From Candidatus Harrisonbacteria bacterium (GTDB lineage: Bacteria > Patescibacteriota > Minisyncoccia > UBA6257 > 1-14-0-10-44-23): a stretch of 47,068 nt of DNA. Position numbers and translations under genes: made by a program. The stretch spans positions 357,120-404,187 of the forward strand of contig JAHFLF010000001.1 in NCBI GenBank assembly GCA_023255625.1, given 5' to 3'. Shown piece by piece: positions 760 to 43,553 of this stretch (the stretch's first letter is position 1; every line of letters starts with the position of its first letter). The notes under the pieces are model-generated. The model did no database searches, was not told where the DNA came from, and saw nothing but the letters and a program-made list of their open reading frames with translations.

Positions 760-927
760 CTACGAATAACGAATTGGTTCACGAAAGTACGAATAAGGTA
801 TAAAATACATATAAGTCGAAAAATAATAATAATTAAAAAAATAAAAACGAATTACGAATAAAATACGAAAGCCGAAGAGATGCCGAGCCGCACTATTCGC
901 ACTTTCGTACAAAATTCGTAATTCGTT
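760..927. repeat. Junction inverted repeat, family B (TACGAAT/ATTCGTA)
   Basis: aacgaattacgaataaaatacgaaag (846-871) pairs with ctttcgtacaaaattcgtaattcgtt (902-927); extra left-arm units at 760-797; ends 7 nt before ATG 935. Confidence 0.75.
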
Positions 928-8593: not shown

Positions 8594-8706
8594 AGAGTAA
8601 TCGCGAATATGCGAATAGCTAATAATGCTAATACTACCACGAACCATCAGCGACAGCTTCTTGCCACATTCGCGATATTCGCTATTTGCGTATTCGCGAT
8701 TACTCT
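8594..8706. repeat. Junction inverted repeat, family E variant
   Basis: Perfect 16-bp termini agagtaatcgcgaata / tattcgcgattactct. Confidence 0.85.
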
Positions 8707-9922: not shown

Positions 9923-11761
9923 ATGTCCTCTCTCAACCCTGAACAAGAAAAGGCGGCCAATCACCCAGGTGGCCCTCTTCTCATGGCCGCGGGCGCCGGC
10001 TCCGGTAAAACCAAGGCGCTAACCAGTCGATTGAAACAGTTGATTAAGAGGGGAATACCGCCACACGAAATAGTTGCCATTACCTTTACAAATAAAGCCG
10101 CCCGCGAGATGCGCGAGCGAGTCTTCGGCAAAGACAATGCAGATCAAAAATGGCATCCGCGTTTCCCTGTATACGGGGAACCATTCATCGGAACATTTCA
10201 CTCTTTTGGCGCAAAAATTCTGAAGGAAGAGCCAGCGCTACTGGGGCGAACATCCGCATTCTCAATTTATGACGATGACGATTCTGGCTCACTCGTAAAA
10301 CGAATCCTGAAGGAGATGGGGCTGGCAAAAGATATCTGGAAACCCGCGGCGGTAGAGCAGAGAATTAGCAGTGTCAAAAGCGAGCTTCAAGATATTACGG
10401 AAATATTTGAGTCAGAAGACCGGCGCGACCAAATTTTTGCCGAGATTTTTAACCGTTACGAACGCACACTAAAACAAGACAATGCCTTTGACTTCGATGA
10501 TCTAATAGAAAAACCGGTGCGATTACTAAATGAGAACTTAGAACTTAGAACTAAGTACCAAGGACTATTTAGCCATATTCTGGTGGATGAATATCAGGAT
10601 ATTAACACAACGCAATATCAGTTGATCCGTCTTTTGGTTGAAAAGCACAAAAATATCTGTGTCGTCGGGGATGATTTCCAGAGTATTTTTGCGTTTCGAG
10701 GAGCGGACTTCCGAAATTTTTTGAATTTTGCGAAAGACTGGCCCGAAGCAACAATTATCAAGTTGGAACAAAATTATCGCTCGACCGCGAATATTATTAA
10801 TGCCGCAAATGCCGTCATTAAAAATAACACCGTCCAGACGCCGAAAAATTTGTGGACGGAAAATCCGGACGGAAGATTAATCAAAATCGTGGCCGCCGGA
10901 GACTGCGACAGCGAGGCGATTTGGGTTGCAAACGAGATCCGAGAACTAAGAAGTGAAAATAGGGATTTGAGCGTTGGGATATTGTATCGAACTAATGCGC
11001 AATCCCGCGCGATCGAACAAGCGCTCATTAGTGAAAATCTGGCCTACAAAATCTTCGGCGGGTTAAAATTCTACGATCGAAAGGAAATAAAAGATGTTCT
11101 AGCCGGATTGCGGCTGGCGAATAATCCGCTAGATACTGTCAGCGGCGAACGGCTACAGACCTCGCTGGGCAAGCGGATCGGTGCACCAACTGCAAAGATT
11201 ATGCAGTCGCAAGGAGGGCGGAATAAATCCATTGCGGAACTGATTGAAATTTTCATGAGGGAATCAAAGTATCAGGATTTTCTAGAAGAAAAATTCAATA
11301 ACCCGCAGGAGCGAATGGATAACATTAGTGAACTTGCTCGTTTTGCGGCGGAGTTTGAAAATCTGGGTGAATTTCTGGAGCGTGCCTCACTCCTGCAATC
11401 TGCCGATCGCCCCTCTTCCGGCCAACTAACCAGCCAACCAACTAACCAGCCAACCAATCCCGTTAACCTGATGACCATCCATATAGCGAAGGGGCTGGAA
11501 TTTGATTGCGTTTTTATCATCGGCGTCAATGAGGGGATGTTGCCACACGAACGGTCAGTAGAAAAACCGGAGCAGGTTGAAGAGGAACGCCGTTTAATGT
11601 ATGTTGCAATGACCAGAGCCCGCACAATGCTCTATATTCTCTTTCACTCCTTCCCCAGCCGCTTTCTCTATGAAATTCCCAAAGATCTGTGCAGCTTTGA
11701 TAGTTGCGACGGGCTGACCAATGGACTGCCGAGTGAGGATGAGATGTGGATAGAGAACTAG
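9923..11761 (+). CDS. pcrA: UvrD/PcrA family ATP-dependent DNA helicase (short form)
   Basis: AGAGSGKT, ILVDEYQD, VGDDFQSIF, LEQNYRST, LMTIHIAKGLEF, EEERRLMYVAMTRA. Confidence 0.93.
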   Translation: MSSLNPEQEKAANHPGGPLLMAAGAGSGKTKALTSRLKQLIKRGIPPHEIVAITFTNKAAREMRERVFGKDNADQKWHPRFPVYGEPFIGTFHSFGAKILKEEPALLGRTSAFSIYDDDDSGSLVKRILKEMGLAKDIWKPAAVEQRISSVKSELQDITEIFESEDRRDQIFAEIFNRYERTLKQDNAFDFDDLIEKPVRLLNENLELRTKYQGLFSHILVDEYQDINTTQYQLIRLLVEKHKNICVVGDDFQSIFAFRGADFRNFLNFAKDWPEATIIKLEQNYRSTANIINAANAVIKNNTVQTPKNLWTENPDGRLIKIVAAGDCDSEAIWVANEIRELRSENRDLSVGILYRTNAQSRAIEQALISENLAYKIFGGLKFYDRKEIKDVLAGLRLANNPLDTVSGERLQTSLGKRIGAPTAKIMQSQGGRNKSIAELIEIFMRESKYQDFLEEKFNNPQERMDNISELARFAAEFENLGEFLERASLLQSADRPSSGQLTSQPTNQPTNPVNLMTIHIAKGLEFDCVFIIGVNEGMLPHERSVEKPEQVEEERRLMYVAMTRARTMLYILFHSFPSRFLYEIPKDLCSFDSCDGLTNGLPSEDEMWIEN

Positions 11762-11853
11762 TTAGTTCGTTAGATAGTTAGTTGGTTAGTTAGTAAAAAC
11801 TAATATCAATCCTTTCTTACCAACTAACAAACTAACCAGCTAACCAATTAACT
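11759..11853. repeat. Junction inverted repeat, family D (GTTAGTTG / CAACTAAC)
   Basis: Left arm starts at the pcrA TAG; right arm ends 3 nt before the rsmA ATG. Confidence 0.85.
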
Positions 11854-14669: not shown

Positions 14670-16682
14670 ATGCAAAGATACGGCTCTAAAATCCTGGTTG
14701 CCATCTTACTCTGCTCACTAGTCGGGGGAACGATTTCATTCCCGAAGCCGGCTCATGCTATTTTACTGACCACAGAAGACAACCCGGTTGTCCTCATAAC
14801 TAATACCGAAACTTCAGTGGCTACGAATGTGACTGCCGGTGCTGCAGTTGAGGGTACGGTGGCTTCAAACATCAGCGCAAGTTCGCAGACAATTTTACTG
14901 GGCGAATCGCTGCTCAAATGGGCGGGGGAGGCCTTTGTGCAGGGACTAAAAAAGGCATTATTAAATTATTTGGTAGACCGCGTTATCGCCTACATTAAGG
15001 GCGCGAAAGACGGCGGCTTTGTCGGAGATTGGCAGTCTTACTTAAGTGGTGCGCTGGCCACCGGACTGCAGCAATTCGCCCTCAATTTTACCAACATCGA
15101 TATCTGCGCACCATTCAGCGCTCAACTAAAACTGGCTTTCGCTATTCCGGAGGTCGGTCAATTTTCTCAAAAATATACCTGTGACTTTGATAGCATCGGT
15201 GAAAACATCGAGGATTTCTACGCTGACTTCAGAAAGGGCGGCTGGATTGCTTACAGTAAATCCTGGGAGCCGCAAAACAATATGTACGGCATCTTCCTCT
15301 CCGCCAGCGTTGAGCAGGCGGCCGAGGCCTCGGCCGCACAGGACGCGGCCAGAGCCGAGGCCTCGGCCGGCGCCGGCTTTTTGGGTAAAAAAGAATGTAC
15401 AGAAAAGTTGGACACCTCTGATCTGGACGGCGCACTACCCGGCCCAGACTTAGACGGCGACGGCCAGCCGAACGATGATCCGGCCAGCTGCCACATCACT
15501 ACGCCCGGTCAGACAGTGGCCGCCAGTTTACAAAAAAGTTTGGATTCAGAATTTGATTATATCAACAGCTTGACCGGCACGAACATCGGCCCGTATGTCG
15601 CCGCGATTGTTGACGCGATGGTCGGCCGAGTCTTAGAAGAGGGGCTTTCTCTGGTTGCCGCCCACGCACCCAGCTCGCCAAGTGTCGGCGACTATGTTGA
15701 TGTGAGCAGCATTAACCGGACAGACTCGCAGCGCTTCCGCAGTCAATCGCAGCGGACGGCGAAAGATGTAAAAGAGGCGATTCAGCTGCGGGAATCGGCC
15801 CAGGCCTTTGCACAAAGCGCGGCGACAAAATGGCTAAAGTTCACTCATGGCGCAACTGACATCGTCTCTGAAGCCGCCAGACAAATCCGCGAGGCACAAC
15901 GGGTGCTTATCTATGTTTACAATGAACTGAACAAGGTTACCCGCAAAACCCAGATCAATCCTGCGGTCAACGACGGAAACGACAGCACCTTCACTAAAAC
16001 CGAGCAGCTCTGCAGTCCGGTCAAAACCGTGGCAATTATCGACGACCGGGCTTTACCACGACTGCGTGCACAAATTGACCGGGCCACTGATGCGCTAGAC
16101 ACTCTGGACTTAGCCGACGATGAACCAGATGCCAGCGGTAATCCATTGACTTCAGAATTTGTCGCCATGGCAGAGGCAGCCCGCGCAATTAGTGCCGGGG
16201 ACAGAGCGCAGTTTTTTGAACTACTTGCAAATGGCTCGCTCGATGAGCTTGGCATAGATCCGGCCAGTATTGACTCCAGCGATGACGACAACCCGGATCA
16301 AATTGAACTGCTTAAAGAGGTGCAATTTGAACTGGATAATGATTTGGTAGAAAATTCGCCGGAGACCCGCTACCGGCTTTCGGAAATTCAAAACACGCTG
16401 GCCGGCGATGTCATAGTTTCAGCACGCCAGTTTAAGACCGCGATGAAGAAAATCGACAACGACATCGAAGGCATCCTGAAAAACGCCTCATCGTATGCAA
16501 ACCGGCTAAAGGCCTGCTTTAACCCGCGCAATGAACTCGACCTGAAACAGGGCGTGGTGGTGGCGTGGACAACCAACGATCCGGGTGATGAGTCAATCAG
16601 CAAACCAGCGCGTAACCCCGGCTTCCCGTGGGAGACCGATGTCGATGCAGATCCGGACGCCAGCGAAAATACCTCTGAATAA
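14670..16682 (+). CDS. Large hypothetical secreted protein (T4SS-cluster associated)
   Basis: Signal peptide ending PAHA; DFRKGGW..PQNNMYG and ITTPG segments resemble proteins I associate with CPR conjugation-like clusters; acidic DLDGDG motif. Confidence 0.75.
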   Translation: MQRYGSKILVAILLCSLVGGTISFPKPAHAILLTTEDNPVVLITNTETSVATNVTAGAAVEGTVASNISASSQTILLGESLLKWAGEAFVQGLKKALLNYLVDRVIAYIKGAKDGGFVGDWQSYLSGALATGLQQFALNFTNIDICAPFSAQLKLAFAIPEVGQFSQKYTCDFDSIGENIEDFYADFRKGGWIAYSKSWEPQNNMYGIFLSASVEQAAEASAAQDAARAEASAGAGFLGKKECTEKLDTSDLDGALPGPDLDGDGQPNDDPASCHITTPGQTVAASLQKSLDSEFDYINSLTGTNIGPYVAAIVDAMVGRVLEEGLSLVAAHAPSSPSVGDYVDVSSINRTDSQRFRSQSQRTAKDVKEAIQLRESAQAFAQSAATKWLKFTHGATDIVSEAARQIREAQRVLIYVYNELNKVTRKTQINPAVNDGNDSTFTKTEQLCSPVKTVAIIDDRALPRLRAQIDRATDALDTLDLADDEPDASGNPLTSEFVAMAEAARAISAGDRAQFFELLANGSLDELGIDPASIDSSDDDNPDQIELLKEVQFELDNDLVENSPETRYRLSEIQNTLAGDVIVSARQFKTAMKKIDNDIEGILKNASSYANRLKACFNPRNELDLKQGVVVAWTTNDPGDESISKPARNPGFPWETDVDADPDASENTSE

Positions 16683-16685
16683 TCT

Positions 16686-18797
16686 ATGCACGAACCTTTA
16701 GTCCAAAAAATATTAAAATGGCTCATCTGCAGCGGCTTTATCGCCACTCTTGTTACGGTTATTTTGCTAGTACCGGGACATGCGGCGCAGGCGCTTGATA
16801 ATCCGTTCAGCGCTCTTTTGGGACTTCCCTCAATTCCAATAAATGCCTTTTTCCTGGGTGTTCCATATCTAATCGGCCTGGTCGGCGGATCTATACTAAC
16901 AATAGCTAGCATGTTCGTCAGTTGGTTTTTTATATTGAACACAAACATCTTCCCGGATAAATTTGGGGCGATTGAAAGCGGCTTTCAAATCTCGCTCGGC
17001 ATTGCCAACTTACTGTTTGTAGTTGCCCTCATCTTTATCGCCTTTAGCACAATCCTAAATGTCGGAGAGTACACGGCGAAGAAGATGCTTGGTAAATTAA
17101 TCGTTGCGGTGGTTCTAATTAATTTCAGCTATCTTATCGTTGGTGCAATCCTAGACCTTAGCCATGTTATGACGATGTACTTTATCTCTGCCGGCGGCGA
17201 GGAGCATCTTGGCAGCGGCATAGGTGCAATTTTGCAACCGCAAAAATTGCTAGTTCCGGTCAATTTGACAAATCTAACGACCACCGTCTTTTCCCCTTCC
17301 TGGTGGGGGCTCATTCTTGGCGCCGTTACAACCGCGATCTTCACCTGGATCGCCGCAATCGTCATGGCCGCAATCGCAATCATGTTCCTGGTTCGTTACA
17401 TTTATCTGGCAATACTGATTATTGTGATGCCTCTGGCCTGGGCGCTGCCACTCTTTCCGGGTGGGGGCGAATTAAGCAGCAAGTGGTGGCACAAATTCAG
17501 CGAACAGTTATTTTATCTGCCGGCCGCCACCTTCTTCATCTACCTCTCTATGAAAATGGCGCTGAATCTTCCGAGTCAAACCCCCGGCATGTTCGCGAGC
17601 GGCGGCACTGATAACTGGAGCGGTTATTCAAACATAGGCCTGGCGCCGCAAGGAATTGCCCAGATGTTAATCGTGGTTGGCATGCTCGTCGGCTCATTGG
17701 TAATTGCCAGCAAACTCGGCGGGGCCGGCACGGCGTTTGGTAAGATGATGGCGGGCAAGATAACTGATCTGGGTAAAAAGTACGCGAAGGGGGTGGGCAT
17801 GAAAGCTTACAGTGCTCAAGTTAAAATTCGCGGTAAGAACATTGGCCTAGAGCAAGGAGTTAAAGCGGGAACCGGCATGCTTGGCAGGGGAATGGCTTGG
17901 CAGCCAAAAAGCAAATTCATGAAGGGCGTTACCGGCACAGTCGACAAAGCCACCGGCTGGATACCTGGTAAAAAATATATCGCTGGAGCCGCAAAATCTG
18001 TCGCCTTTGGTGGTGCCTACGACCAAGTTCTCGGCCAAACTACTAAATTCAGCGAGGATTATGGTGCCTCGATTAAATCCGCTCAAGCAACCGAGGATAT
18101 GCTTAGCCGCCAGCAAAAACATGCGAAATATGAAGATCCTAAAAAAGCTGCTAGAGATGATATGGCATTTTATGCGGAACTTACCAATCCTATTGTTCAT
18201 AAGGAGCCGGATGAACTCAGAAAGTGGATGGAAGATGAGCCAACTCGTACCCGCGCGTTAGAGGTTATTAATCGTTTCGAGCCAGAGGCGGGCCCGGATG
18301 AGCATGGTAAGGAAGATCCAACCAAGAGTAAGACGAGGATGGCGCTTGCAACTGCGATGCCAGAACTCGCAGATAAACTCTTGCGAGATAGTAAAGGAAA
18401 GCTTGCTGAAAAAGCAGTCTCTGATAAAGGTTTGGGTGAGCGCGAGGGGGACGCTATGAATTACGCTATGGGCAGAAAAGATGCGGCGGCCAATATCCAC
18501 CCATCATCACTTGAGAATCCAGAATTTATTAGACAGGCGGAGGCAATCATGGCCCGTGGTAATAATAACCCGCAAGCAGAAAAAATGGTTTCTTTGCTTG
18601 CTACTATCGCTCGACGCTCTGGAGAGACTAATGAAAAAATACGTAAGGGCTTCTCAACTAATGCTTACCTTATGGATCGCCTTAGGGTAAGCGTTGGCAC
18701 TTTGGATTCTCAGCAACCCGCAGATACAACAAATACTCAGGCACCTCCTGCACCCCAAGGGAGCCCAGCGGCGGCTACACCTGGTACCCCGCATTAA
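16686..18797 (+). CDS. Polytopic membrane protein, VirB6/TrbL-like
   Basis: About 8 TM helices, KLIVAVVLINFS and LVRYIYLAILIIVMPLAW..SSKWW motifs, Gly-rich tail; upstream of prgI and virB4. Confidence 0.7.
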   Translation: MHEPLVQKILKWLICSGFIATLVTVILLVPGHAAQALDNPFSALLGLPSIPINAFFLGVPYLIGLVGGSILTIASMFVSWFFILNTNIFPDKFGAIESGFQISLGIANLLFVVALIFIAFSTILNVGEYTAKKMLGKLIVAVVLINFSYLIVGAILDLSHVMTMYFISAGGEEHLGSGIGAILQPQKLLVPVNLTNLTTTVFSPSWWGLILGAVTTAIFTWIAAIVMAAIAIMFLVRYIYLAILIIVMPLAWALPLFPGGGELSSKWWHKFSEQLFYLPAATFFIYLSMKMALNLPSQTPGMFASGGTDNWSGYSNIGLAPQGIAQMLIVVGMLVGSLVIASKLGGAGTAFGKMMAGKITDLGKKYAKGVGMKAYSAQVKIRGKNIGLEQGVKAGTGMLGRGMAWQPKSKFMKGVTGTVDKATGWIPGKKYIAGAAKSVAFGGAYDQVLGQTTKFSEDYGASIKSAQATEDMLSRQQKHAKYEDPKKAARDDMAFYAELTNPIVHKEPDELRKWMEDEPTRTRALEVINRFEPEAGPDEHGKEDPTKSKTRMALATAMPELADKLLRDSKGKLAEKAVSDKGLGEREGDAMNYAMGRKDAAANIHPSSLENPEFIRQAEAIMARGNNNPQAEKMVSLLATIARRSGETNEKIRKGFSTNAYLMDRLRVSVGTLDSQQPADTTNTQAPPAPQGSPAAATPGTPH

Positions 18798-18811
18798 CAA
18801 ATATATTTTTT

Positions 18812-19447
18812 ATGCCTGAATTTGACACAAAAAATACTGCGACAAACCAGCAGGAACCAGATAAAAATAATCCTGGAAAATCACCTTGGCCCTTTGACAA
18901 TCTGCCCGTTGAAATACATGACTGGTTGATTTCCGACGAGGTAGACACATTTGTCAGGGATCTAACGGCTAAAAATACGGATTCTATTCCAGATAAAAGG
19001 GCACTGGGCTTTACAATAACCTGGCTGGCAATCGGAAAAATTAATGCTAATCAATTTGTCGGTTCGCTAATCAATGCCTTTAAAATCTCTCCAGAGATTG
19101 CGAAAACGCTTGCTAAAGAAGTCAGGGATGGGGTTTTAAAACCCATCAAATTCGCAATGCGCTCCAAACTCGGAATAGACATTGAGCATGTTACTGATGA
19201 GCCGGGAGTAATCGCGAATGGTTTAATAATGGACATACGAAAACCAGTGGCGGCTGCGCCCACTCCTACCGCGCGAGTAATCCCAATGAGCCGACCCGTG
19301 GCGGGACAGTCCACGGTTAGTCGGTCGACAGTTAGTCAGCCAGGAGGTGGACAGCCGCAAATCAAAGCTGGCGTGATACAACCGACAAAGCCGATTGGTT
19401 TGAGTGAGGTTGTGCCGCAGCCGCCTGGAGGAACGGGGAACGGTTAG
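18812..19447 (+). CDS. Hypothetical protein
   Basis: ORF in operon context; Pro-rich tail contains an in-frame family F repeat. Confidence 0.7.
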   Translation: MPEFDTKNTATNQQEPDKNNPGKSPWPFDNLPVEIHDWLISDEVDTFVRDLTAKNTDSIPDKRALGFTITWLAIGKINANQFVGSLINAFKISPEIAKTLAKEVRDGVLKPIKFAMRSKLGIDIEHVTDEPGVIANGLIMDIRKPVAAAPTPTARVIPMSRPVAGQSTVSRSTVSQPGGGQPQIKAGVIQPTKPIGLSEVVPQPPGGTGNG

Positions 19448-19907
19448 TTGGTTAGCTAGTTAGTTGGTTAGTTGGTTAGTTGGTCATAAAGCAAACGAAA
19501 ACTTAAACAAGAAATTTATGGCGGAAAGTTTTCGTGGATTAAAAATCTGGCAAATCTCTGAAGATCTTGTAATTGAAATCTACCGTTTGACTAAAAAATT
19601 CCCGGGTGATGAAGTTTTCTCGCTCACAAATCAACTCCGGCGAGCGGCTATTTCCGTACCCGCAAATATCGCCGAATCTTCTGGCAGATGGGGAGAAAAA
19701 GATAAAATACAATTTCTGATGATTGCCAGGGGGTCAATTACAGAAATTCGTAGCCACATCTCCATAGCCAAGCGACTCCACTATATAAACGACTCGGAGT
19801 ATACTAAAATTGACTCTTCTTACGAACAACTTACTAAAAGCTTGAATGCCTTTATTAGAACTATCCGCCCAACTAACTAACGAACTAACTAGCTAACCAA
19901 CTAACTA
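19442..19907. mobile_element. Family D inverted-repeat cassette carrying a four-helix-bundle gene
   Basis: Arms 19442-19484 and 19869-19907; perfect 23-bp complementarity between 19443-19465 and 19883-19905. Confidence 0.65.
19518..19880 (+). CDS. Four helix bundle protein (23S rRNA IVP / TIGR02436 family)
   Basis: SFRGLKIWQ..FP..E.FSLTNQLRRAAISVPANIAE..FLMIARGSITE. Confidence 0.93.
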   Translation: MAESFRGLKIWQISEDLVIEIYRLTKKFPGDEVFSLTNQLRRAAISVPANIAESSGRWGEKDKIQFLMIARGSITEIRSHISIAKRLHYINDSEYTKIDSSYEQLTKSLNAFIRTIRPTN

Positions 19908-19923
19908 TCTTCGCGATTACTCT

Positions 19924-20301
19924 ATGCAGTTCGAAGTTCCACAATTTCTGGATGTTGAAGACAAAATCTTCGGGCCGCTCACGCTCAAGCAATTTTTGTA
20001 CCTGGCCGGTGCCGGGGGCTTTAGTTTTATTCTCTTCTTCGCCCTCCAAACCTGGCTCTGGATAACCTGCACCTCGGTTTTAGCGGTAATCGCCGCCGGT
20101 CTGGCCTTCGGAAAATTTAACGGCCGACCGATAATTTATACGCTCTTTTCTGTAATCAAATATACCTGGCGGCCAAAATTTTATCTATGGCAATATTCCG
20201 CACCCGGGCAAGAGCAGCCGGTGATGCACAGCATCGAGGGCCGCCAGCCAACCGGTTCGGCGCTCAAAAAATTGTTGTTGCGACTAACCACCAGACAGTA
20301 A
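19924..20301 (+). CDS. prgI: PrgI family protein
   Basis: FEVPQFLDVEDKIFGPLTLKQF followed by two TM helices. Confidence 0.88.
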   Translation: MQFEVPQFLDVEDKIFGPLTLKQFLYLAGAGGFSFILFFALQTWLWITCTSVLAVIAAGLAFGKFNGRPIIYTLFSVIKYTWRPKFYLWQYSAPGQEQPVMHSIEGRQPTGSALKKLLLRLTTRQ

Positions 20302-20857
20302 TCGCTAACACGCTAATACGGACGAATATGCCAATGGGGGGAAGCTGGAGACTCGCCACAGTAATCGCTAACACGCTAATACGGACGAATATGCCAATGG
20401 GGGAGAAAGATAGAAAAACAGCAGACCTGATCTATCCGGAGTTAAGCTATGCAATTGTTGGAATACTTTTCGAGGTAGCTAATGCCCTCCCACCTGGATT
20501 ACCGGAAAAAGATTATCAGAGGGCCTTATCTATGTTATTAACTGATAGAAAAATTAATTTCGCTCGCGAAGTCTACATTCCAATCACTCTTCTAGGAAAA
20601 CTTGTTAGTAAATATTTCGCGGATTTTGTAATAGATAATAAGATATTGCTTGAGCTCAAGGTGGGTCCAACTCTTGGTTATGCCCATGCACGGCAGACAT
20701 TAACCTGTTTACGAGCAAAAAATCTCCAATTAGGTATAATTGCCTACTTCACTAAAAATGGAGTGCAGTGTCGACGTATCGTTAACGAAAATTACAAATC
20801 CGAACCCTCTCTGACTCATTAGTGTATTAGTCTTGATTCGCATGTTAGCGATTACTG
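20296..20857. mobile_element. Family E inverted-repeat cassette carrying a GxxExxY gene
   Basis: Left arm cagtaatcgctaacacgctaat (tandemly duplicated); right arm attcgcatgttagcgattactg ending 20857. Confidence 0.65.
20391..20822 (+). CDS. GxxExxY protein (PD-(D/E)XK nuclease-like)
   Basis: LIYPELSYAIVG..GLPEKDYQRAL..ADFVIDNKILLELKV; start ATG 20391 or 20397. Confidence 0.9.
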   Translation: MPMGEKDRKTADLIYPELSYAIVGILFEVANALPPGLPEKDYQRALSMLLTDRKINFAREVYIPITLLGKLVSKYFADFVIDNKILLELKVGPTLGYAHARQTLTCLRAKNLQLGIIAYFTKNGVQCRRIVNENYKSEPSLTH

Positions 20858-20900
20858 CCACTAGAACATTTTCGTGAACACTACATGATATACTAAAGGT

Positions 20901-21581
20901 ATGCCTAGCAGAGAGGATGCGCTGCCAACACAGCAGTTTATTGATATTGAGGCCGTCGAAAACGGCGTACTTTTGTTGCGGGGAGGGAGCATGCGCCAGA
21001 TTGTCGCCGTATCGGGGCTGAATTTTGACTTAAAAAGCGAGGATGAGCAAAATGCGATTATTTTCAGCTATCAAAATTTTCTAAACTCGCTCAATTTCAC
21101 CCTGCAAATTTTTATCCATTCACGCAAAGTAAACATTGATGGCTACCTGGCCGGACTAAAGGGGATAGAGGCCGGTGAAATGCATCCGCTTCTGAAAACG
21201 CAGTTGGCGGAATACGGAGAGTTTATCCGGTCATTCGTAGCTGAAAATGCGATCATGCAAAAATCTTTCTATGTGGTTGTGCCCTATGATGTTGTCGAAA
21301 TCGGAGGTGTCTCTTCCTCGGGCGGCGCATTGAGTTTTTTAAAAAAGAAAAAATCAGTAGACCAAACCGCGCTTTCAGAAACCGAACAAAGCGAATCGCG
21401 GAAACGCAATATGGGCCAGCTCTCACAACGAGTCGAACAGGTTATTGCCGGACTACAACAAATCGGCCTGGCCAGCGAACCGCTTGAAGAACAAGCGGCA
21501 ATAGAGCTCTTCTACAATCTCTATAACCCAGAGAATGCGGAGAAGAAGGGGCTCTCGATAGATGCTGCTAGAGATAATTAG
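20901..21581 (+). CDS. VirB4/TraC-associated conserved protein (N-terminal-part-like)
   Basis: TQQFIDI..NFDLKSEDEQ..YQNFLNSLNFTLQI..FYVVVPY..LFYNLYNP; lies between prgI and virB4. Confidence 0.75.
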   Translation: MPSREDALPTQQFIDIEAVENGVLLLRGGSMRQIVAVSGLNFDLKSEDEQNAIIFSYQNFLNSLNFTLQIFIHSRKVNIDGYLAGLKGIEAGEMHPLLKTQLAEYGEFIRSFVAENAIMQKSFYVVVPYDVVEIGGVSSSGGALSFLKKKKSVDQTALSETEQSESRKRNMGQLSQRVEQVIAGLQQIGLASEPLEEQAAIELFYNLYNPENAEKKGLSIDAARDN

Positions 21582-22010
21582 ACGCTGCTAGATGCTGCTA
21601 GGGGGGCACGGAAAAACAAATGGAAAATACTTACAAAAATTTAATTGTTTGGCAGCGCGCAGTCGAACTAGTCATTGCTATCTACGAGCTTACATTTCAT
21701 TTTCCGAATTCGGAACAATATGGATTAACCTCTCAAATACGCCGTGCCGCAGTTTCGATGCCTTCAAATATAGCCGAAGGTAAAACCCGCCGCACCGGAA
21801 AAGATTTCCGTCATTTTCTAACAATGGCTTTTGCATCTGGAGCGGAACTAGAAACACAATTAATTATCGCAAAACGACTTGGTTTCGCAAAACCAGAGCT
21901 ATACTTGAAAGCTGATACTTTGCTAAACGAGGTCATGAAAATGCTAAATGTACTATTACAAAAAACAAGCGGAGTCCTAGCAGCATCTAGCAGCATCTAG
22001 CAGCATCTAT
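21558..22010. mobile_element. Family C inverted-repeat cassette carrying a four-helix-bundle gene
   Basis: Left atagatgctgctaga..tagatgctgctagg (21558-21602); right (ctagcagcat)x3 (21976-22010), overlapping the virB4 ATG. Confidence 0.65.
21620..22000 (+). CDS. Four helix bundle protein (23S rRNA IVP / TIGR02436 family)
   Basis: YKNLIVWQRA..FPNSEQYGLTSQIRRAAVSMPSNIAEG..SGAELETQL. Confidence 0.93.
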   Translation: MENTYKNLIVWQRAVELVIAIYELTFHFPNSEQYGLTSQIRRAAVSMPSNIAEGKTRRTGKDFRHFLTMAFASGAELETQLIIAKRLGFAKPELYLKADTLLNEVMKMLNVLLQKTSGVLAASSSI

Positions 22011-23721
22011 GGAAAACCAAGTCAAAAACATTATAGCTCCTGCCGGTATCGAGGTCGCCGCTGGCCATATTAAGCTCGGCAACAAATATGCCAAGACGCT
22101 CTTTATATTCAGCTATCCGCGCTATCTGTCGACCGGCTGGTTTTCACCAATCATCAACTTCCCAGATCTGCTGGACATTGCGATTTTTGTAAATCCGATT
22201 GATGCTACAACCGCGCTTAAACAACTGCGCCGAAAAGCCACGCAAATTGAAGCGCAATTAATTGAAAAGCAGGAGAAGGGGCTGATCCGCGATCCAATTT
22301 TAGAAACCGCCCAGCAGGACATTGAGTCTCTACGCGACGCGCTTCAGCAGGCGCGCGAAAGTATGTTCGCGACCTCGGTCTACATTACTCTGTACGCCGA
22401 CGATCTGGATAAGCTTGAGAAGTTGGAAGGTAAAATTACCAACATGCTGGAAACTCGACTGATCTATGTCAAACCAACCTCCTTTCAACAAGTTGAGGCG
22501 GTTAATTCCGTTTTCCCGCTTTGCAAAGACCGCGTGAACATAACCACCCTGCTCAACTCGGGCCCGATCTCCTCATTTTTCCCGTTCATCTCGCTGAACA
22601 TGACCAGCGACTCTGGGATTCTGTACGGTGTAAACCGACACAACAATACGCTGGTAATTTTTGACCGCTTCTCGCTAGAAAATGCCAACATGGTCATCTT
22701 CGCCAAATCCGGATCCGGTAAATCATATGCGGCCAAGCTCGAGGCGTTGCGACTGCTCATGACCGGCACCGATGTCATAATTATTGATCCGGAGAATGAG
22801 TACGAAAAATTGGCAACCGCAGTTGGCGGCAGCTACTTCAAAATCGCCCTGGCCTCGGAGCACCACATTAATCCCTTTGAAATTCCGGCGATTCCAAAAG
22901 ATGAAGATCCGGCGGAGACGCTGCGTAGCCATATTGTTGTCTTGACTGGGCTGATTAAACTTATGGTCGGGGAGACGACTCCGGAGGAGGAGACCATAAT
23001 CGACCGCGGACTAAACGAGGCGTATGCCAGCCGTGAAATTATCCCGGGCAAAGACTTTAGCAACGCTACCCCACCGCTCCTCAAAGACCTGGAGACAATT
23101 TTCCGTAATATGGAGGGGGGTAATTCGCTGGCAGAACGGCTCTATCGATTCACCGAGGGCAGCTTTGCCGGCTTTACCAATCAGCCGACCAGCATTGATC
23201 TGCGTAACCGTTTGATTGTTTTCTCGATTCGCGATCTGGAAGAGGAGCTGCGCCCGATTGCTATGTACATCGTGTTGAACTTTATCTGGTCGCTGATCCG
23301 CGGAGACTTTAAAAAACGCGTAGTGATGATTGATGAGGCCTGGATACTAATGAAAAACCGCGACAGCGCCACCTTCTTGTTTGGACTGGTCAAACGCGCC
23401 CGCAAATATTTTCTGGGTATTACAACAATCACGCAGGATGTTGAAGATTTTCTGCTCTCGCCTTATGGCCGACCAATTCTGACCAACTCCAGCTTACAGT
23501 TACTGCTTAAGCAGGCCCCGGCGATGATGGACACAATTTCGAAAACCTTTAATCTCTCGGAGGGGGAGCGGCAGCTTTTAATCGAAGCCAATGTGGGTCA
23601 AGGACTTTTCTTCGCGGGCAGCAACCATGTGGCTATCCAAATCGTCGCCAGCTATCCGGAGCACCAACTCATCACTACAAATCCGGAGGAGCTATTGCAA
23701 CAGCAAAATCTGATACAATGA
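22009..23721 (+). CDS. virB4: VirB4-like type IV secretion/conjugation ATPase
   Basis: AKSGSGKS Walker A, IIDPENEY, INPF, MIDEAW Walker B, KRARKY..ITQ. Confidence 0.88.
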   Translation: MENQVKNIIAPAGIEVAAGHIKLGNKYAKTLFIFSYPRYLSTGWFSPIINFPDLLDIAIFVNPIDATTALKQLRRKATQIEAQLIEKQEKGLIRDPILETAQQDIESLRDALQQARESMFATSVYITLYADDLDKLEKLEGKITNMLETRLIYVKPTSFQQVEAVNSVFPLCKDRVNITTLLNSGPISSFFPFISLNMTSDSGILYGVNRHNNTLVIFDRFSLENANMVIFAKSGSGKSYAAKLEALRLLMTGTDVIIIDPENEYEKLATAVGGSYFKIALASEHHINPFEIPAIPKDEDPAETLRSHIVVLTGLIKLMVGETTPEEETIIDRGLNEAYASREIIPGKDFSNATPPLLKDLETIFRNMEGGNSLAERLYRFTEGSFAGFTNQPTSIDLRNRLIVFSIRDLEEELRPIAMYIVLNFIWSLIRGDFKKRVVMIDEAWILMKNRDSATFLFGLVKRARKYFLGITTITQDVEDFLLSPYGRPILTNSSLQLLLKQAPAMMDTISKTFNLSEGERQLLIEANVGQGLFFAGSNHVAIQIVASYPEHQLITTNPEELLQQQNLIQ

Positions 23722-23725
23722 AATC

Positions 23726-24430
23726 ATGAAATTAAGGCCTTTGCTCAAATTCGCATTATTCGCTATTAGCGCATTAGCGCTTACTCTGGTTACTCCTGTT
23801 TTTGCACAAACAACCGTGCCGAAACCGCCTCCGATCAAAATCGATTTCGTTCTCACCTGGCAGGCGCAAACCACCGCCCCGCAAGGGTATACCGGCAAGA
23901 TACTGCCGGCGCGCGGGACTAAAATCAAGGTCTTTGCCCAGCCGATGTCCGACGATAAACCGGTTGATCTAACTGGATATGAAATTAGTTGGACAGTTAA
24001 TGGCGTACCTCTGCCGCAGGAGCAGAATAAAAAATCAATTCAGTTTATGGCCGGCCTATATGGCGCCTCACAATACAATGTCGCCGTAAGAGCCCGCCAG
24101 GAAAACACAATTGTCGGTCAAACAACGATTACGATACCAATTGTTGCCCCTAAAGTGATTATTGATATCCCATATCCAAACCAAATTACTCCGCGGGAAG
24201 ATGTCCTGCTGCGCGCCCTGCTCTATTTTCTGCCAGAGGAAACAGCGCGAAGGGCCCGAGTATCTTGGATGATTAACGGAGTAAATATCTCTGCAGAGGA
24301 CACTTTTGGTGATTTACTAAATACCTCTTTTGACGGCAAGGCGTCAGACATACCGGTTTCAGTTTCGGTAAGAAACGGCGATACCCGCGAGATCGTGGCG
24401 AATGCACTAACTCACATTTCTATTCAATAA
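23726..24430 (+). CDS. Hypothetical secreted beta-rich (Ig-like) protein
   Basis: Signal peptide ending VFA; LTWQA...YTGKILP and WTVNG/WMING repeats. Confidence 0.75.
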   Translation: MKLRPLLKFALFAISALALTLVTPVFAQTTVPKPPPIKIDFVLTWQAQTTAPQGYTGKILPARGTKIKVFAQPMSDDKPVDLTGYEISWTVNGVPLPQEQNKKSIQFMAGLYGASQYNVAVRARQENTIVGQTTITIPIVAPKVIIDIPYPNQITPREDVLLRALLYFLPEETARRARVSWMINGVNISAEDTFGDLLNTSFDGKASDIPVSVSVRNGDTREIVANALTHISIQ

Positions 24431-24434
24431 TTCT

Positions 24435-25241: not shown

Positions 25242-26362
25242 TGAAAAAAACTTACTGGCTCCTCATTATTATAGTATTCATCATCGCCGCCGCGATCGGC
25301 TATTGGTTTTGGCAAAAAAATCCAACGCCGCTGCCCGCAGATCAAGCGACCTCGACAGTCCCGCTCTTACCGAGCGATTTCCTGCCTGGATCTGGGGATG
25401 ATGCGGCCGCGACAAACAGTGGCGTTTCACCGATGGTCTTAACCGACCACGCTGTTTCTGATTACTGGATAGATGCAGCAGACATGACTTTGTATACAGT
25501 AACCGCAGACGGCATAGTCAGTAACACTCCTTATGGTGGTGGAGAAGAAATAACTTATGATGGCGACGGCCGGCCACTTATATCAGCGCAGCCATCAGCA
25601 CGCGGCGACCTAGTCCTGCTGACCACTGGAACAAGAACGGCTCCAACCGTAGCGTTAGTTAATGTGATTACGGGTAAACGGACATTCCTGCCAACACTCA
25701 CAAAAGCCGCCGGCTGGCATCCAAACGGAAAGGACATAGTGTATTTGCGCGACGGTGATTCCAAAAATACCGCGGGGTTATATATATACAATGTGGCCAA
25801 GGGTAGTTCCGGGCTGCTCTCTCCGATCAACATTCAGGATGTCCATCTTGAGCCACAACACAAAAACGCAATCACTATCACAGAACCGACCACCCTACTG
25901 GCTAATGTCTCCAACTGGAGCTTTAATCTGAACGAAAAAACTCTAACTCCGATTGTGCCGGCACAGCCGGGACTGCTGATGAGTTGGCATCCTAATTTAA
26001 CCGGCGAGGGACTTATATTTACGCCAAAAACCGGTCTGGTGCTTGTCTCGAAACAGGGCAAGACGACTCCATTGGCGATCATGGCCCTACCGGAAAAATG
26101 CGGCTTTGGTGTCGCCGGCATGTTGTATTGCGCTGTACCAAATAAAACGCCAAAAGGGCTGCCGGACAGCTATTTGCAGCGGAGCATCTATACAACCGAC
26201 TCGCTGGTCGCGATAACTGCGGACGGAAAAACAAAATCGCTGTGGAACAGCGACATTGAGGGCCAGCCATTTGACGCTGATAATTTACGCGTCTCCGGCA
26301 AAACTATTTACTTCATCAATAGATACGACGGCTACCTTTATTCGCTCTCGCTGGTTAATTAG
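25241..26362 (+). CDS. Hypothetical membrane-anchored beta-propeller-like protein
   Basis: N-terminal TM; repeated beta-strands; ALPEKC..LYCAVP and YFINRYDGYLYSL motifs. Confidence 0.75.
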   Translation: MKKTYWLLIIIVFIIAAAIGYWFWQKNPTPLPADQATSTVPLLPSDFLPGSGDDAAATNSGVSPMVLTDHAVSDYWIDAADMTLYTVTADGIVSNTPYGGGEEITYDGDGRPLISAQPSARGDLVLLTTGTRTAPTVALVNVITGKRTFLPTLTKAAGWHPNGKDIVYLRDGDSKNTAGLYIYNVAKGSSGLLSPINIQDVHLEPQHKNAITITEPTTLLANVSNWSFNLNEKTLTPIVPAQPGLLMSWHPNLTGEGLIFTPKTGLVLVSKQGKTTPLAIMALPEKCGFGVAGMLYCAVPNKTPKGLPDSYLQRSIYTTDSLVAITADGKTKSLWNSDIEGQPFDADNLRVSGKTIYFINRYDGYLYSLSLVN

Positions 26363-26459
26363 TTAGTTCGTTAGCTGGTTAGTTGGTTAGTTGGTGAAAG
26401 GCAGGTGACAAATTTTGTTGCCTCGCCAACTAACCAACTAACTAAGCAACCAACTAACC
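26353..26459. repeat. Junction inverted repeat, family D, between convergent genes
   Basis: Left gttagttcgttagctggttagttgg; right ccaactaaccaactaactaagcaaccaactaacc. Confidence 0.85.
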
Positions 26460-26465
26460 TCCCCG

Positions 26466-34917: not shown

Positions 34918-35009
34918 TTGGTTAGTTGGTTGCTTAGTTAGTTGGTTAGTTAGCTAGGGCAGCCCAGAGAAATTGTATCTACAAGTTAACTAACTAACAA
35001 ACTAACTAA
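34918..35009. repeat. Junction inverted repeat, family D
   Basis: ggttagttggttgcttagttagttgg / taactaactaacaaactaacta; overlaps the yebC stop and abuts the ruvC start. Confidence 0.8.
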
Positions 35010-35560
35010 GTAACGATTGTATTTGTTACTACCCGTTGTACATCCTCGTGTTCCTCAAACCCCGCGATTATCGCGGCGAGAAGATTTTGTGAGCTGGCAG
35101 AGACTGGTTGAGGGAATTTTGCTTTGTAGTGTCGAGTTGGCACGCCGTCTTGAATTTCGTCGACAAGCTCAAAGGCCCAAAGAGTGCTTCCGGTATCGGC
35201 CGGCTTAATGCCAAGCTCCCCGGCGAGCGTTCTCATTTCTTGCATCGTACGATTGCTGCTGTCAGTAATACCCTCAACAATCATTAAAAGACCTTCGGGC
35301 CCGATACATTCGAAAACAAATTCTTTCAAATCCTTTTGTTCTTTGGCCCGATTTATGGCGCGTTCTATATTTTCATTCGGCACACTAGACGCACGAGCTG
35401 TTTCAACCAGCGTTCGCAGTCGCGGATTTTCTTCCGGTTTCGGATTTGTTTTTGCGGCGATAGCGATTGCCCCCAATATTTTTGTAAACAAAATCGCCCG
35501 CTTCTGATCCTTAGCGCCCTTCTGATGTTTGATTTGCGACCATTTGTTGTGACCGGACAT
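35006..35560 (-). CDS. yebC: YebC/PmpR family protein (short form)
   Basis: MSGHNKWSQIKHQKG, NPRLR, IERAI, EEHEDVQRVVTN. Confidence 0.93.
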   Translation of the reverse strand: MSGHNKWSQIKHQKGAKDQKRAILFTKILGAIAIAAKTNPKPEENPRLRTLVETARASSVPNENIERAINRAKEQKDLKEFVFECIGPEGLLMIVEGITDSSNRTMQEMRTLAGELGIKPADTGSTLWAFELVDEIQDGVPTRHYKAKFPQPVSASSQNLLAAIIAGFEEHEDVQRVVTNTIVT

Positions 35561-35562
35561 GG

Positions 35563-35683
35563 GCAGAAGTTGCTAGAGGAGATTAGATGCTGCTAGCACG
35601 AATAAATAGAGAGTTGGCCATTTTGTCTGTGGTATCCTTATGCTAACAGCTTCTAGCGACCTCTAGCAACCTCTAACGCCTCT
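35563..35683. repeat. Junction inverted repeat, family C, between divergent genes
   Basis: agaagttgctagaggagattagatgctgctagc / ctagcgacctctagcaacctctaacgcctct; each arm abuts an ATG. Confidence 0.75.
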
Positions 35684-42494: not shown

Positions 42495-42600
42495 CACGCC
42501 ACAGTAATCACTAACACGCTAATACAGACGAATACGCGAATAAAATCCGGACTCTTCTTTATTAGTATATTAGTCTTAATTAGCATTTTAGCGATTACTG
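42485..42600. repeat. Junction inverted repeat, family E
   Basis: cagtaatcactaacacgctaat (42502)..ttagcgattactg; the final G is the first base of the mutM GTG; partial extra left arm at 42485. Confidence 0.85.
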
Positions 42601-43553
42601 TGCCCGAACTTCCCGAAGTTGAAACTGTGGTTCGTGATTTACGCCGGAAAGTTGTCGGCCAGACAATTACTGCTGTTTGGACTGACTGGCCGAAACTAAT
42701 TAAGGATTTTGAGAATCAGAGTCGGCTGCATGTTTCTAAAAAAGCAGTCGCACATTTTCAGAAGCATCTTCCGGGCTTACGGATTGAACGGGTAGAGAGG
42801 CGAGCGAAAAATATTTTGATTTATCTTTCCGGCGGGCATTTGATGCTCGTACATCAAAAGATGACCGGGCATTTTCTCGTCGGTAAATGGCAGATAGAGA
42901 ATGGCAAAGCAGTTGGTATTTCGCCGCGTGAGATTGTTGAGGATTCGTATAACCATCATGTGCATTTAATTTTCTCTCTATCGCCGGTTTCTTCTTCCCA
43001 ACTAACTAAGCAACCAACTAACCAGGCAACTTATCCTATGCAGCTTGGGCTTTCAGATGTCCGAAAGTTTGCCAAAGTTTTGTTCGGTAAGCAGGAACAG
43101 ATTGAATCATTGCCCGAGCTTGCTAATCTCGGCCCGGACGCGCTCGACCCACAGCTGACCATTTCGCAATTTCGCGAAATTGCGAAATGCCAAACCCGGC
43201 CAATCAAGCAGGTCTTGATGGACCCGTTTGTAATTGCCGGGATCGGCAATATTTACTCTGACGATATTTTGTGGCGGGCCAAAGTGCATCCAAAAACACG
43301 CGCTGCGGTGCTCAAGCCGGCGCAGCTTTCGGCTATTTATAAATCAATGAGGGTAGTTTTGACTAAGGCCGTGCGGCTGCGCGGTACCTCAACCAGCGAC
43401 TTCCGCGATACCGACGGCAAAGAGGGCGGCTATACAGAATATCGGCTGGTGTATGGGCGCAAAGGCCAGCCGTGCCAGCGCTGCAAAACTCCGATTGAGC
43501 GGATGGTGATCGGTGGCCGCAGTGCGCATTTTTGTCCGAAGTGCCAACAGTAA
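42600..43553 (+). CDS. mutM: Formamidopyrimidine-DNA glycosylase
   Basis: MPELPEVE, RRAKNIL, HQKMTG, AGIGNIYSDD, C-terminal zinc finger. Confidence 0.96.
   Translation: MPELPEVETVVRDLRRKVVGQTITAVWTDWPKLIKDFENQSRLHVSKKAVAHFQKHLPGLRIERVERRAKNILIYLSGGHLMLVHQKMTGHFLVGKWQIENGKAVGISPREIVEDSYNHHVHLIFSLSPVSSSQLTKQPTNQATYPMQLGLSDVRKFAKVLFGKQEQIESLPELANLGPDALDPQLTISQFREIAKCQTRPIKQVLMDPFVIAGIGNIYSDDILWRAKVHPKTRAAVLKPAQLSAIYKSMRVVLTKAVRLRGTSTSDFRDTDGKEGGYTEYRLVYGRKGQPCQRCKTPIERMVIGGRSAHFCPKCQQ

Follow-up and report, generated by a model that had tools for sequence, protein, structure and literature searches.

Stop-rich inverted repeat arms enclose small genes at operon junctions in a Candidatus Harrisonbacteria genome: probable selfish cassettes of the 23S rRNA intervening-sequence type

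Within a 47,068-nucleotide (nt) stretch of DNA from Candidatus Harrisonbacteria bacterium (assembly GCA_023255625.1, contig JAHFLF010000001.1, positions 357,120 to 404,187; hereafter the window), positions 19443-22018 hold three cassettes, each of which is one small gene between inverted, stop-rich tandem-repeat arms. In our numbering the window is G000:C8:357120-404187, where G000 is the genome itself (931,659 bp, 12 contigs, 48% G+C). We propose that the three units are probably copies of one widespread, selfish kind of hairpin-bounded cassette, of the type represented by the intervening sequences (IVSs) of 23S rRNA and located here at the junctions of an operon. Each cassette consists of a left arm, one small gene and a right arm; the left arm supplies the stop codon of the upstream host gene, and the right arm ends at the downstream start codon. 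An earlier note on this DNA, drawn up by a model from the letters and their open reading frames (ORFs), had described three repeat families that each enclose one gene within 2.6 kb. Both the arms and their cargo are confirmed by repeat and profile searches, and are listed below with lengths in amino acids (aa).

19443..19484, plus strand: left arm D; tandem 8-nt units of the GGTTAGTT type, with TAG recurring in shifting frames
19518..19880, plus strand: cargo 1, four-helix-bundle / 23S_rRNA_IVP gene HB_D, 120 aa; TIGR02436 123 bits (cut-off 24), PF05635 E 4.5e-36
19869..19910, plus strand: right arm D; CCAACTAA-type units; covers the cargo 1 stop
20295..20340, plus strand: left arm E, copy 1; 100% identical to copy 2
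20358..20409, plus strand: left arm E, copy 2; holds the cargo 2 start codon(s), ATG at 20391 and 20397
20391..20822, plus strand: cargo 2, GxxExxY PD-(D/E)XK nuclease-family gene, 143 aa; TIGR04256 89 bits (cut-off 35), PF13366 E 1.9e-23
20807..20857, plus strand: right arm E; covers the cargo 2 stop
21550..21602, plus strand: left arm C; units of ~10 nt, TAGATGCTGC type
21620..22000, plus strand: cargo 3, four-helix-bundle / 23S_rRNA_IVP gene HB_C, 126 aa; TIGR02436 121 bits, PF05635 E 3.7e-37
21976..22018, plus strand: right arm C; covers the cargo 3 stop and reaches the ATG at 22009

By repeat search, arm pair D (19443-19477 / 19871-19905) is 94% complementary over 35 nt and arm pair E (20359-20409 / 20807-20857) 75% over 51 nt; the second copy of left arm E (20295-20340), identical over its 46 nt, also pairs with right arm E (41 nt, 78%). 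Arm pair C (21579-21602 / 21976-21999) is 96% complementary over 24 nt and can be extended to 21550-21591 / 21977-22018. The longest perfect runs are 23 nt for D, the value already given in the earlier note, 15 nt for E and 19 nt for C. The position of the arms relative to the genes, which the note had likewise described, is read directly from the sequence: the stops of the upstream host genes (19445-19447, 20299-20301 and 21579-21581) all fall inside left arms, those of the cargo genes (19878-19880, 20820-20822 and 21998-22000) all fall inside right arms, and the ATG of the VirB4 ATPase ORF (22009) touches the end of right arm C. When the cassettes are folded as RNA, their minimum free energy (MFE) structures contain 34 (D), 42 (E) and 37 (C) arm-arm pairs; the arm duplex energies are -55, -48 and -65 kcal/mol, and the MFE z scores against 30 mononucleotide shuffles each are -6.5, -2.9 and -6.2, respectively.

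The two four-helix-bundle proteins, HB_D and HB_C, are ~40% identical to each other and match TIGR02436 over model positions 1-108 of 109, which supports their assignment to this family. HB_C also matches a solved protein, XCC0516 (PDB 2gsc, E 1.3e-24; the entry has 5 chains), described in the accessible part of PMC4990558 as a homopentameric toroid. For the GxxExxY cargo, residues E39, D78, E88 and K90 are invariant in 29/29 aligned proteins. Its E...D...ExK site is intact, in line with the D..ExK motif named in the earlier note, and the protein is a predicted nuclease. Its AlphaFold model (predicted local distance difference test, pLDDT, 89; predicted template-modelling score, pTM, 0.82) has as its closest folds Cas4 SSO0001 (E 2e-5, template-modelling score 0.51), alkaline exonuclease, lambda exonuclease and MGME1, all of them DNA end-processing nucleases. 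No solved structure with sequence homology to this cargo was found. None of the three cargos matches a defence system in PADLOC, family profile searches detect no known transposase within the cassettes, and the phage-family search gave only a weak match to Avd (phrog_3206). The cargo ORFs are intact and their key residues are conserved.

Arms of this kind accompany both gene families generally and are not a local oddity. Arms were scored by local alignment of the upstream flank with the reverse complement of the downstream flank. The genome itself has five PF05635 and five PF13366 genes, and all ten have inverted arms with scores of 35-60, against 1/300 random 320-nt segments that score at least 35. 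Of 61 genomes belonging to the same order, 43 have PF05635 genes and 25 have PF13366 genes; PF05635 copy numbers range from 0 to 8 per genome. At the four-helix-bundle loci of these relatives, 17 of the 28 that are testable score at least 30 and 23 exceed the control maximum of 25, while 0/112 controls reach 30. The GxxExxY loci give a similar result: 16 of the 18 testable ones score at least 30, and all 18 lie above the maximum of 21 among 33 controls. These counts are the outcome of the search for flanking arms, in the genome and its relatives, that the earlier note had suggested. A cross-phylum set was then taken from a scan of one genome per GTDB species, starting from a 7-sequence alignment of four-helix-bundle proteins; it comprises the best 80 of at least 595 relatives and is not a random sample of the family. 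In this set, which covers more than 12 phyla (including Patescibacteria, Acidobacteriota, Bacillota, Bacteroidota, Pseudomonadota, Planctomycetota, Fibrobacterota and Chlorobi), 49/77 testable genes score at least 30, while 0/231 controls exceed 26.

All of the arms are arrays of 7-10-nt tandem units, the right arm being the left in reverse complement. From one cassette to the next they have almost no sequence in common, but their style is constant and set by the type of cargo. At least three (T/C/G)AG words are present in 56/79 four-helix-bundle left arms versus 0/23 GxxExxY left arms, and at least two words of the CGAAT/CTAAT type in 3/79 versus 18/23, respectively; it counts against these figures that the words were picked post hoc and that related genomes are non-independent samples. 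Arm word type tracks cargo type. The left arms of the four-helix-bundle genes are C-poor on the coding strand (9% C); hence, the element has a fixed polarity relative to its gene. As a matter of arithmetic, a TAG that recurs every 7, 8 or 10 nt hits all three frames, and thus an upstream ORF is terminated whatever its frame.

A tandem duplicate of one arm is found in 4/10 cassettes of the genome, with identities of 87-100%: cassette E of the window (46 nt, 100%) and the cassettes at pilB/pilC (60-nt period, 92%), infB/rbfA (30 nt, 87%) and SIMPL (48 nt, 92%). The left arm is duplicated in two GxxExxY cassettes, and the right arm in one four-helix-bundle and one GxxExxY cassette. The sites are window 20295-20403 and G000:C8 near 486.9, 168.7 and 458.7 kb (loci L166, L050 and L190).

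According to family profile searches, the host of the three cassettes is a conserved type IV secretion-like operon, which also holds a gene for a 703-aa membrane protein. The genes adjoining the cassettes are as follows.

18812..19447, plus strand: host gene, 211 aa, no family match; stop 19445-19447 inside left arm D
19924..20301, plus strand: host gene for a PrgI-family (VirB3-like) membrane protein; PF12666 40.6 bits (cut-off 27); stop inside left arm E copy 1
20901..21581, plus strand: host gene, 226 aa, VirB4 N-terminal part (TrsD-like); VirB4_plasma profile positions 126-233, CD1110 positions 2-76
22009..23721, plus strand: host gene for a VirB4-like ATPase, C-terminal 570 aa; CD1110 family 382 bits (cut-off 325), profile positions 185-734 of 752

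The final residues and the stop of the 226-aa VirB4 N-part ORF are encoded by left arm C. The third cassette, which the earlier note had placed upstream of virB4, actually lies between the N-part ORF and the ATPase part. The VirB4 ATPase is present in 59/61 related genomes. VirB4 is encoded by two ORFs, an N part of ~220 aa and the ATPase (window 20901-23721), in 27/30 related loci (L001-L030) and by a single ORF in L014, L024 and L026; the position of cassette C is the exact split point. Public sequences matching the window region come from three groundwater metagenome DNA runs of one study, with no RNA run among the holders, and the related loci found by search belong to the Patescibacteria, or candidate phyla radiation (CPR).

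Comparison across genomes shows that arms and cargo are, as far as sequences can tell, gained, lost and relocated as one unit. The VirB4N/VirB4C junction was compared at 30 loci. Three of them (this genome, G009 and G005) have a four-helix-bundle cassette there, three have a spacer of 137-170 nt that folds as a hairpin, three have no junction since both parts form a single ORF, and the other 21, which take in all four same-genus genomes, have a compact junction of -4 to 111 nt. Cargo identity among the three cassettes is 56-61%. Although the sequences of their arms are unrelated, the arms are complementary and TAG-periodic in each.

The closest congener, G001 (VirB4 86% identical), has a contig, C1, of 357,676 bp that is collinear over 245 kb with G000:C8 from ~344 to 590 kb. 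Within this block, 7/8 cassettes of G000 are absent from G001; the only counterpart is upstream of prgI (63% identical, with D-style arms). The corresponding junctions in G001 measure 28 nt at VirB4N/VirB4C, 19 nt at ftsE/ftsX, 25 nt at nusG/rplK and 81 nt at SIMPL. A tblastn search of the whole of G001 C1 with the ten cargo proteins of our genome detects only two cargo-like genes, and 0 of the 25 hairpins of this contig are of low complexity, as compared to 8 low-complexity hairpins in the G000 block. Filled and empty states at orthologous junctions, which the earlier note had proposed to look for, are thus seen both at VirB4N/VirB4C and in the missing cassettes of G001.

Evidence for relocation comes from a maximum likelihood tree of 45 four-helix-bundle proteins. 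HB_C is sister (99/95) to a G001 gene at a non-orthologous locus, G001:C1:13653-14030, and at the site orthologous to that locus G000 has a different gene and no cassette. By eye, the arms of the G001 gene share C-family words with those of HB_C. In addition, the four-helix-bundle genes found just upstream of prgI in four other CPR lineages (L081, L088, L091 and L097) do not group with HB_D. The genes at this position are polyphyletic, and hence the junction has been occupied several times; in G009, G004 and G032 it holds a GxxExxY gene instead. By hand count, the ~4 kb that precede the VirB4 ATPase gene contain one or more cassettes in 13/59 genomes, ~18 cassettes altogether, where random placement of the ~163 hits predicts roughly one.

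All ten cassettes of G000 are co-oriented with both neighbours, which suggests that the cargo is probably transcribed by read-through from the host operon. The cassettes lie in closely spaced, conserved gene pairs. Apart from the three junctions of the window, the hosts in G000 include infB/rbfA, two response-regulator genes, ftsE/ftsX, pilB/pilC, def/fmt (def identified from its HEYDH motif) and nusG/rplK. Some of these junctions are occupied elsewhere too: at pilB/pilC, G006 has a four-helix-bundle gene and G050 a GxxExxY gene, and four-helix-bundle genes lie upstream of fmt in G053 and a Saprospiraceae genome and upstream of ftsE in a Clostridiales genome.

In relatives, GxxExxY cassettes also occur inside protein-coding genes, as 10/45 PF13366 matches lie in long open frames. 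A GxxExxY domain with translated arms is found in frame within RecG, between helicase motifs II (DEQHRFGV) and III (SATPIPR), in G052, G044, G013 and G037 (L162, L164, L165 and L167); within the GTPase domain of LepA/EF4, between RGITIK and DTPGH, in G024, G052 and G037 (L187, L188 and L193); and within GT4 glycosyltransferases in G060 and G017 (L172 and L173). These in-frame copies form one clade (93/80, inside a 99/97 clade) apart from the five G000 copies, and they keep arms of the ACGCAGAT/ATCTGCGT type that are decayed in some (scores 15-47). In RecG L167, LepA L187 and GT4 L172 and L173, Pfam searches (E up to 1e-4) find only the host domains and PF13366, and no Hint/intein domain. Some four-helix-bundle genes (L056, L059, L194 and L191) are without a stop and read through the right arm into pilin-like (GFSLLELL...) or secreted-protein genes; at the same loci the upstream ORFs are lengthened by translated left-arm repeats.

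Many more hairpins carry no gene. A seed-and-extend scan finds 199 hairpins in the genome and 0 in a codon-block shuffle of contig C8. In 34 of the 199 the arms are of low complexity and belong to the cassette types; 24 of these 34 separate genes that run in the same direction, mostly at ~15 nt or less from the end of a gene. ORF-less copies exist for every cassette arm family. Family F, which forms the arms of the ftsE/ftsX cassette, has 12 such copies, the loops of which resemble the cassette sequence just upstream of the ORF, as expected if one form derives from the other. The 'empty' copies that the earlier note had reported in the window are borne out by the seven ORF-less hairpins below, none of which is assigned a strand.

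846..927, no strand: ACGAAT type, as in the arms of GxxExxY cassettes at other sites of the genome (repeat search)
8594..8706, no strand: E-like, AGTAATCGCGAAT... (repeat search, hairpin scan)
11756..11849, no strand: family D, after the stop of a UvrD-like gene and before the rsmA start (repeat search)
26353..26459, no strand: family D, at a gene junction (repeat search, hairpin scan)
34929..35014, no strand: family D (repeat search, hairpin scan)
35565..35674, no strand: family C type (repeat search)
42500..42602, no strand: family E, 45-nt arms and 13-nt loop (repeat search, hairpin scan)

The same families are present in rRNA. The 23S rRNA gene of this genome (G000:C1:22146-26763, minus strand, L080) measures 4618 nt against a model of 2925 positions. 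At model position 583/584, the loop holds a hairpin of family F (~145 nt). Two hairpins of family K, which forms the arms of the nusG/rplK cassette, are inserted at model positions 1761-1766 (~128 nt) and 1891-1903 (~132 nt), and another is found immediately beyond the 3' end of the gene. Hence, with families F and K both at gene junctions and in the 23S gene, the junction elements and the IVS-type insertions of rRNA belong to the same repeat families. The ORF-less hairpins are numerous relatives of the cassettes, comparable to miniature inverted-repeat transposable elements (MITEs), that also occupy helix tips of the genome's own 23S rRNA.

Several other repeats were noted. Further downstream of the 23S hairpin insertions there is a sub-threshold match to a group I intron (RF00028, 24 bits, E 0.0007). 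D-family arm repeats occur in frame within the uvrD-like helicase gene (11421-11457, translated as GQLTSQPTNQPTN) and within rsmA/ksgA (12048-12081 and 12129-12164), where an inverted D-type pair flanks a 47-nt stretch encoding the segment KSVQIIAGDALLELPK. Several hairpins elsewhere in the genome end in ...GGGAGCAG/CTGCTCATCTTGG. A family of perfect palindromes of 20-26 nt (CTATGTTACAG[C/T]GTACTAGT type) is found at more than 10 intergenic sites genome-wide, e.g. G000:C1:33669, C4:8946, C8:3112, C8:108445 and C8:295440; it is unlike the tandem-repeat hairpins in kind and might be an operator or promoter element. Other strong inverted repeats in the window are not of low complexity (3060-3124, 31427-31547, 37427-37496 and 37501-37923); two of them have perfect arms (27 and 32 nt), and one is a 35-nt pair 353 nt apart.

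In a transcript, the arms could pair into a closing stem of 34-42 bp that would insulate the host RNA and would, by analogy, resemble the stems cleaved by RNase III in the IVSs of rRNA; the genome encodes this enzyme. The arm mismatches show no excess of sense-strand G.U over A.C pairs, with 68 versus 86 for four-helix-bundle arms and 27 versus 19 for GxxExxY arms. Moreover, in the sublineage of in-frame GxxExxY copies, frames that are open through arms and cargo imply that an intact mRNA is translated, which argues against obligatory excision of the RNA. Since these copies appear to need intact mRNA and the wobble test is negative, we lean towards a DNA-level origin of the arm complementarity. 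The arms may be paired arrays of protein-binding sites, or hairpin/cruciform substrates, and the RNA stem would then be a by-product that makes insertions tolerable in rRNA and operons. Our best guess for movement is a DNA-level process in which the cargo protein recognizes its own repeat arms. Judging from its modelled fold, the GxxExxY nuclease itself may act in mobility, conceivably as an end-processing enzyme like Cas4 or lambda exonuclease, while the pentameric four-helix-bundle protein might be a repeat-binding factor.

A more far-reaching version of this proposal remains tentative, and we hold it with less than even confidence. It would make the four-helix-bundle and GxxExxY proteins each a sequence-specific partner of their own arms, and the cassettes a cross-phylum mobile class that lacks a classical transposase and follows a logic like that of REPINs and RAYTs (REP, or repetitive extragenic palindromic, doublets and their REP-associated tyrosine transposases) with different proteins. 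Members of the class would include 23S rRNA IVSs, many of the hairpins at gene junctions and the copies that lie in frame within RecG, LepA and glycosyltransferases; the short tandemly repeated repetitive (STRR) arrays of cyanobacteria might belong to it as well. If so, the four-helix-bundle pentamer ring could read the (T/C/G)AG-periodic arm much as TRAP, the trp RNA-binding attenuation protein, reads GAG repeats, and the nuclease of the GxxExxY type would act on DNA ends or on hairpins as the cassette moves.

Several observations weigh against the cassettes being a mobile, selfish kind. About a third of the cross-phylum four-helix-bundle genes (28/77) show no arms at a score of at least 30, and the genome has no near-identical cargo copies. 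HB_D and its G001 counterpart at the same junction (100/98) look vertically inherited, as do the infB/rbfA cassettes of G000, G002 and G004. Two vertically inherited cassettes within the genus mean that turnover is slow, and loss alone could explain part of the patchiness. No target-site duplication was seen by eye, with no formal search, in four filled/empty pairs (ftsE/ftsX, nusG/rplK, VirB4N/VirB4C and SIMPL), and in the assembled contigs of three runs no excised, circular or empty form is present and none skips exactly one cassette; as such contigs drop rare variants, they have no bearing on excision or empty alleles. The negative wobble result and the predicted need of in-frame copies for intact mRNA count against the RNA part. 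In the earlier note, a class of mobile mRNA intervening sequences had been proposed, in which arm pairing loops out the cargo. The mobile hairpin-bounded class gains from the IVS type of the cassettes, the relocation of HB_C and the empty hairpins of shared families; the specific RNA mechanism, with its preserved operon continuity, and the transposase-free character that the note had also put forward stay conjectural. The two outcomes that the note had named as speaking against mobility, cargos fixed in place with vertical phylogeny and a majority of family members without arms, were neither of them found in full, with two cassettes that look vertical.

Other explanations must account for the same data. 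Conceivably, the dispersed hairpins are older repeats of the REP/MITE kind and the cargos are separate homing genes that enter cognate loops, such that filled forms derive from empty ones. Homing of this kind would suit the intact nuclease site, the rRNA IVSs that likewise sit at hairpin tips, and the junctions that are hairpin-only, four-helix-bundle or GxxExxY in different genomes, but the coupling of cargo type to arm type across phyla would not follow from it, and the relocated HB_C/G001 pair seems by eye to carry related arms, which fits joint movement. ORF-less copies outnumber filled ones, 12 to 1 in family F and 34 to 10 overall; those of family F, however, hold a loop like the region of the cassette upstream of the ORF, which fits deletion, and the empty junctions of G001 lack the arms as well as the cargo. 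We consider the landing of separate genes in older hairpins unlikely. It is decidedly unlikely, too, that the cassettes are domesticated, static and vertical regulatory devices, the arms being an RNase III or other processing site that uncouples cistrons, the four-helix-bundle protein a repeat-binding tuning factor and the patchiness a result of loss. Copy numbers of 0 to 8 per genome within one order, sister cargos at non-orthologous sites, polyphyletic cargos and interchangeable cargo types at one junction, and arm families shared with rRNA helices and with in-frame repeats in ORFs all fit poorly with such devices, and RNA-level selection has left no wobble signature. They would explain why the cassettes are co-oriented within conserved, probably highly expressed operons, why the prgI-upstream and infB/rbfA cassettes are vertical within the genus, why 13/59 relatives have a cassette near the VirB4 ATPase gene and why the cargo ORFs are intact with conserved key residues.

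Two further candidates were rejected. The four-helix-bundle genes could be Avd accessory proteins of a diversity-generating retroelement (DGR), with the repeats as part of it, as they have weak matches to NF033474 (28 and 23.8 bits), PF22296 and phrog_3206 (E 1e-7 and 5e-11) and one reverse-transcriptase (RT) gene lies just beyond the window end. However, the NF033474 cut-off of 80 bits is far above these scores, the four-helix-bundle genes, five in number, are dispersed over operons and the nearest of them is ~25 kb away from the sole RT, and the GxxExxY cassette has the same architecture with no Avd-like gene. The scores below cut-off and the position of the RT lead us to reject this reading as very improbable. 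The RT gene itself (G000:C8:404115-405254, L199:1616-2755; 379 aa), placed ~250 nt past the 3' end of the window, is the only one in the genome; its match to group II intron RTs is below cut-off (122 vs 300 bits), and no four-helix-bundle gene is adjacent. As for chance low-complexity sequence or an assembly artefact, public contigs covering window 16000-27000 do break at the arms, with joints that link same-family arm copies elsewhere or opposite hairpin strands, which indicates that the arms are hard to assemble. Nevertheless, contigs of 4347 and 6082 nt from two runs span cassettes E and C with no differences. Together with the random-segment, shuffle and relatives' controls and the recurrence of the architecture in independent assemblies of many phyla, this leaves such an origin a negligible probability, and it was rejected.

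If the cassettes are selfish elements as we propose, PF05635/TIGR02436 and PF13366/TIGR04256, which are large families of unknown function, would gain a common context as cassette cargo, and the 23S rRNA intervening sequences, a 30-year-old question, would be the rRNA-resident subset of a larger class in operons and ORFs. In the searchable literature, from which subscription journals are largely missing and which is thus no proof of novelty, we found no description of hairpin-bounded cassettes of these genes outside rRNA. The available parts of PMC3936711 and PMC10910872 report 23S_rRNA_IVP genes in cas operons, e.g. between cmr3 and cmr2 (gaps of 86 and 6 nt), that were scored as CRISPR-associated. 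These reports may reflect cassette insertion, or tandem-repeat arms read as arrays, in which case the cas-association would be one of insertion and not of functional partnership. For annotation, the lesson would be that in reduced genomes a stop-rich hairpin of tandem repeats can cut short, lengthen, split or fuse the ORFs beside it. The question is testable, given cultivable carriers such as Thiohalocapsa halophila DSM 6210, Flavobacterium fluvii DSM 19978 and Sphingobacterium alkalisoli.

The cassettes share features with several known systems. With regard to MITEs and insertion sequences, inverted arms are present, no target-site duplication was seen by eye at the four filled/empty pairs, with no formal search, and no known transposase lies in the cassettes. 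As with homing endonuclease genes and inteins, the same conserved sites are occupied across lineages (RecG and LepA) and there is a nuclease cargo with an intact site; unlike inteins, the four in-frame hosts scanned have no Hint domain, and the cassettes differ from homing genes in their long inverted arms, for which homing genes have no need. Rickettsia palindromic elements are selfish palindromes that are tolerated in frame in protein genes and in RNA genes and have no ORF. The D-type arms in frame in the uvrD-like gene and rsmA and the in-frame GxxExxY copies in RecG and LepA resemble these elements as described, but the cassettes carry an ORF. The STRR heptamers of heterocystous cyanobacteria are intergenic 7-nt tandem arrays, also found in a helix tip of the RNase P RNA gene. 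Their unit style resembles many four-helix-bundle arms of the cross-phylum set, as judged with no cyanobacterial locus in the comparison, and in searchable papers no link of STRR to four-helix-bundle or GxxExxY genes was found. In the REPIN/REP and RAYT systems ('REPtrons'), a gene lies between inverted repeats, ORF-less hairpins are dispersed, and each gene lineage has its own repeat type. The cassettes resemble these in that their gene is flanked by inverted repeats and many ORF-less hairpin copies are intergenic. Unlike a RAYT, their cargo is PF05635 or PF13366 and not an HUH/Y1 transposase, which places them outside that family; unlike REPINs, their arms are tandem 7-10-nt arrays and the cassettes are sense-oriented inside operons.

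The closest relatives are the 23S IVSs. As described in the accessible parts of PMC4990558 and PMC11270868, the IVSs of Leptospira, Coxiella, Salmonella and others have complementary borders and a long stem, with or without an S23p ORF, and their sporadic occurrence suggests horizontal movement. Excision of hairpin-bounded IVSs with S23p ORFs by RNase III is documented, and the idea of a mobile element is an old proposal, in what is available of PMC4990558; the same holds for PMC11270868 with regard to CPR rRNA insertions that hold 23S_rRNA_IVP ORFs. Unlike these, the three cassettes lie between protein-coding genes and not at a 23S helix tip, their arms supply stop codons and abut start codons, and there is a second cargo type, the GxxExxY nuclease, with its own arm type. 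In common with the 23S IVSs, the arms of the cassettes are complementary with a stable predicted stem, two of the three cargos are PF05635 (the third being PF13366), and arm families F and K sit in the helices of the genome's own 23S rRNA.

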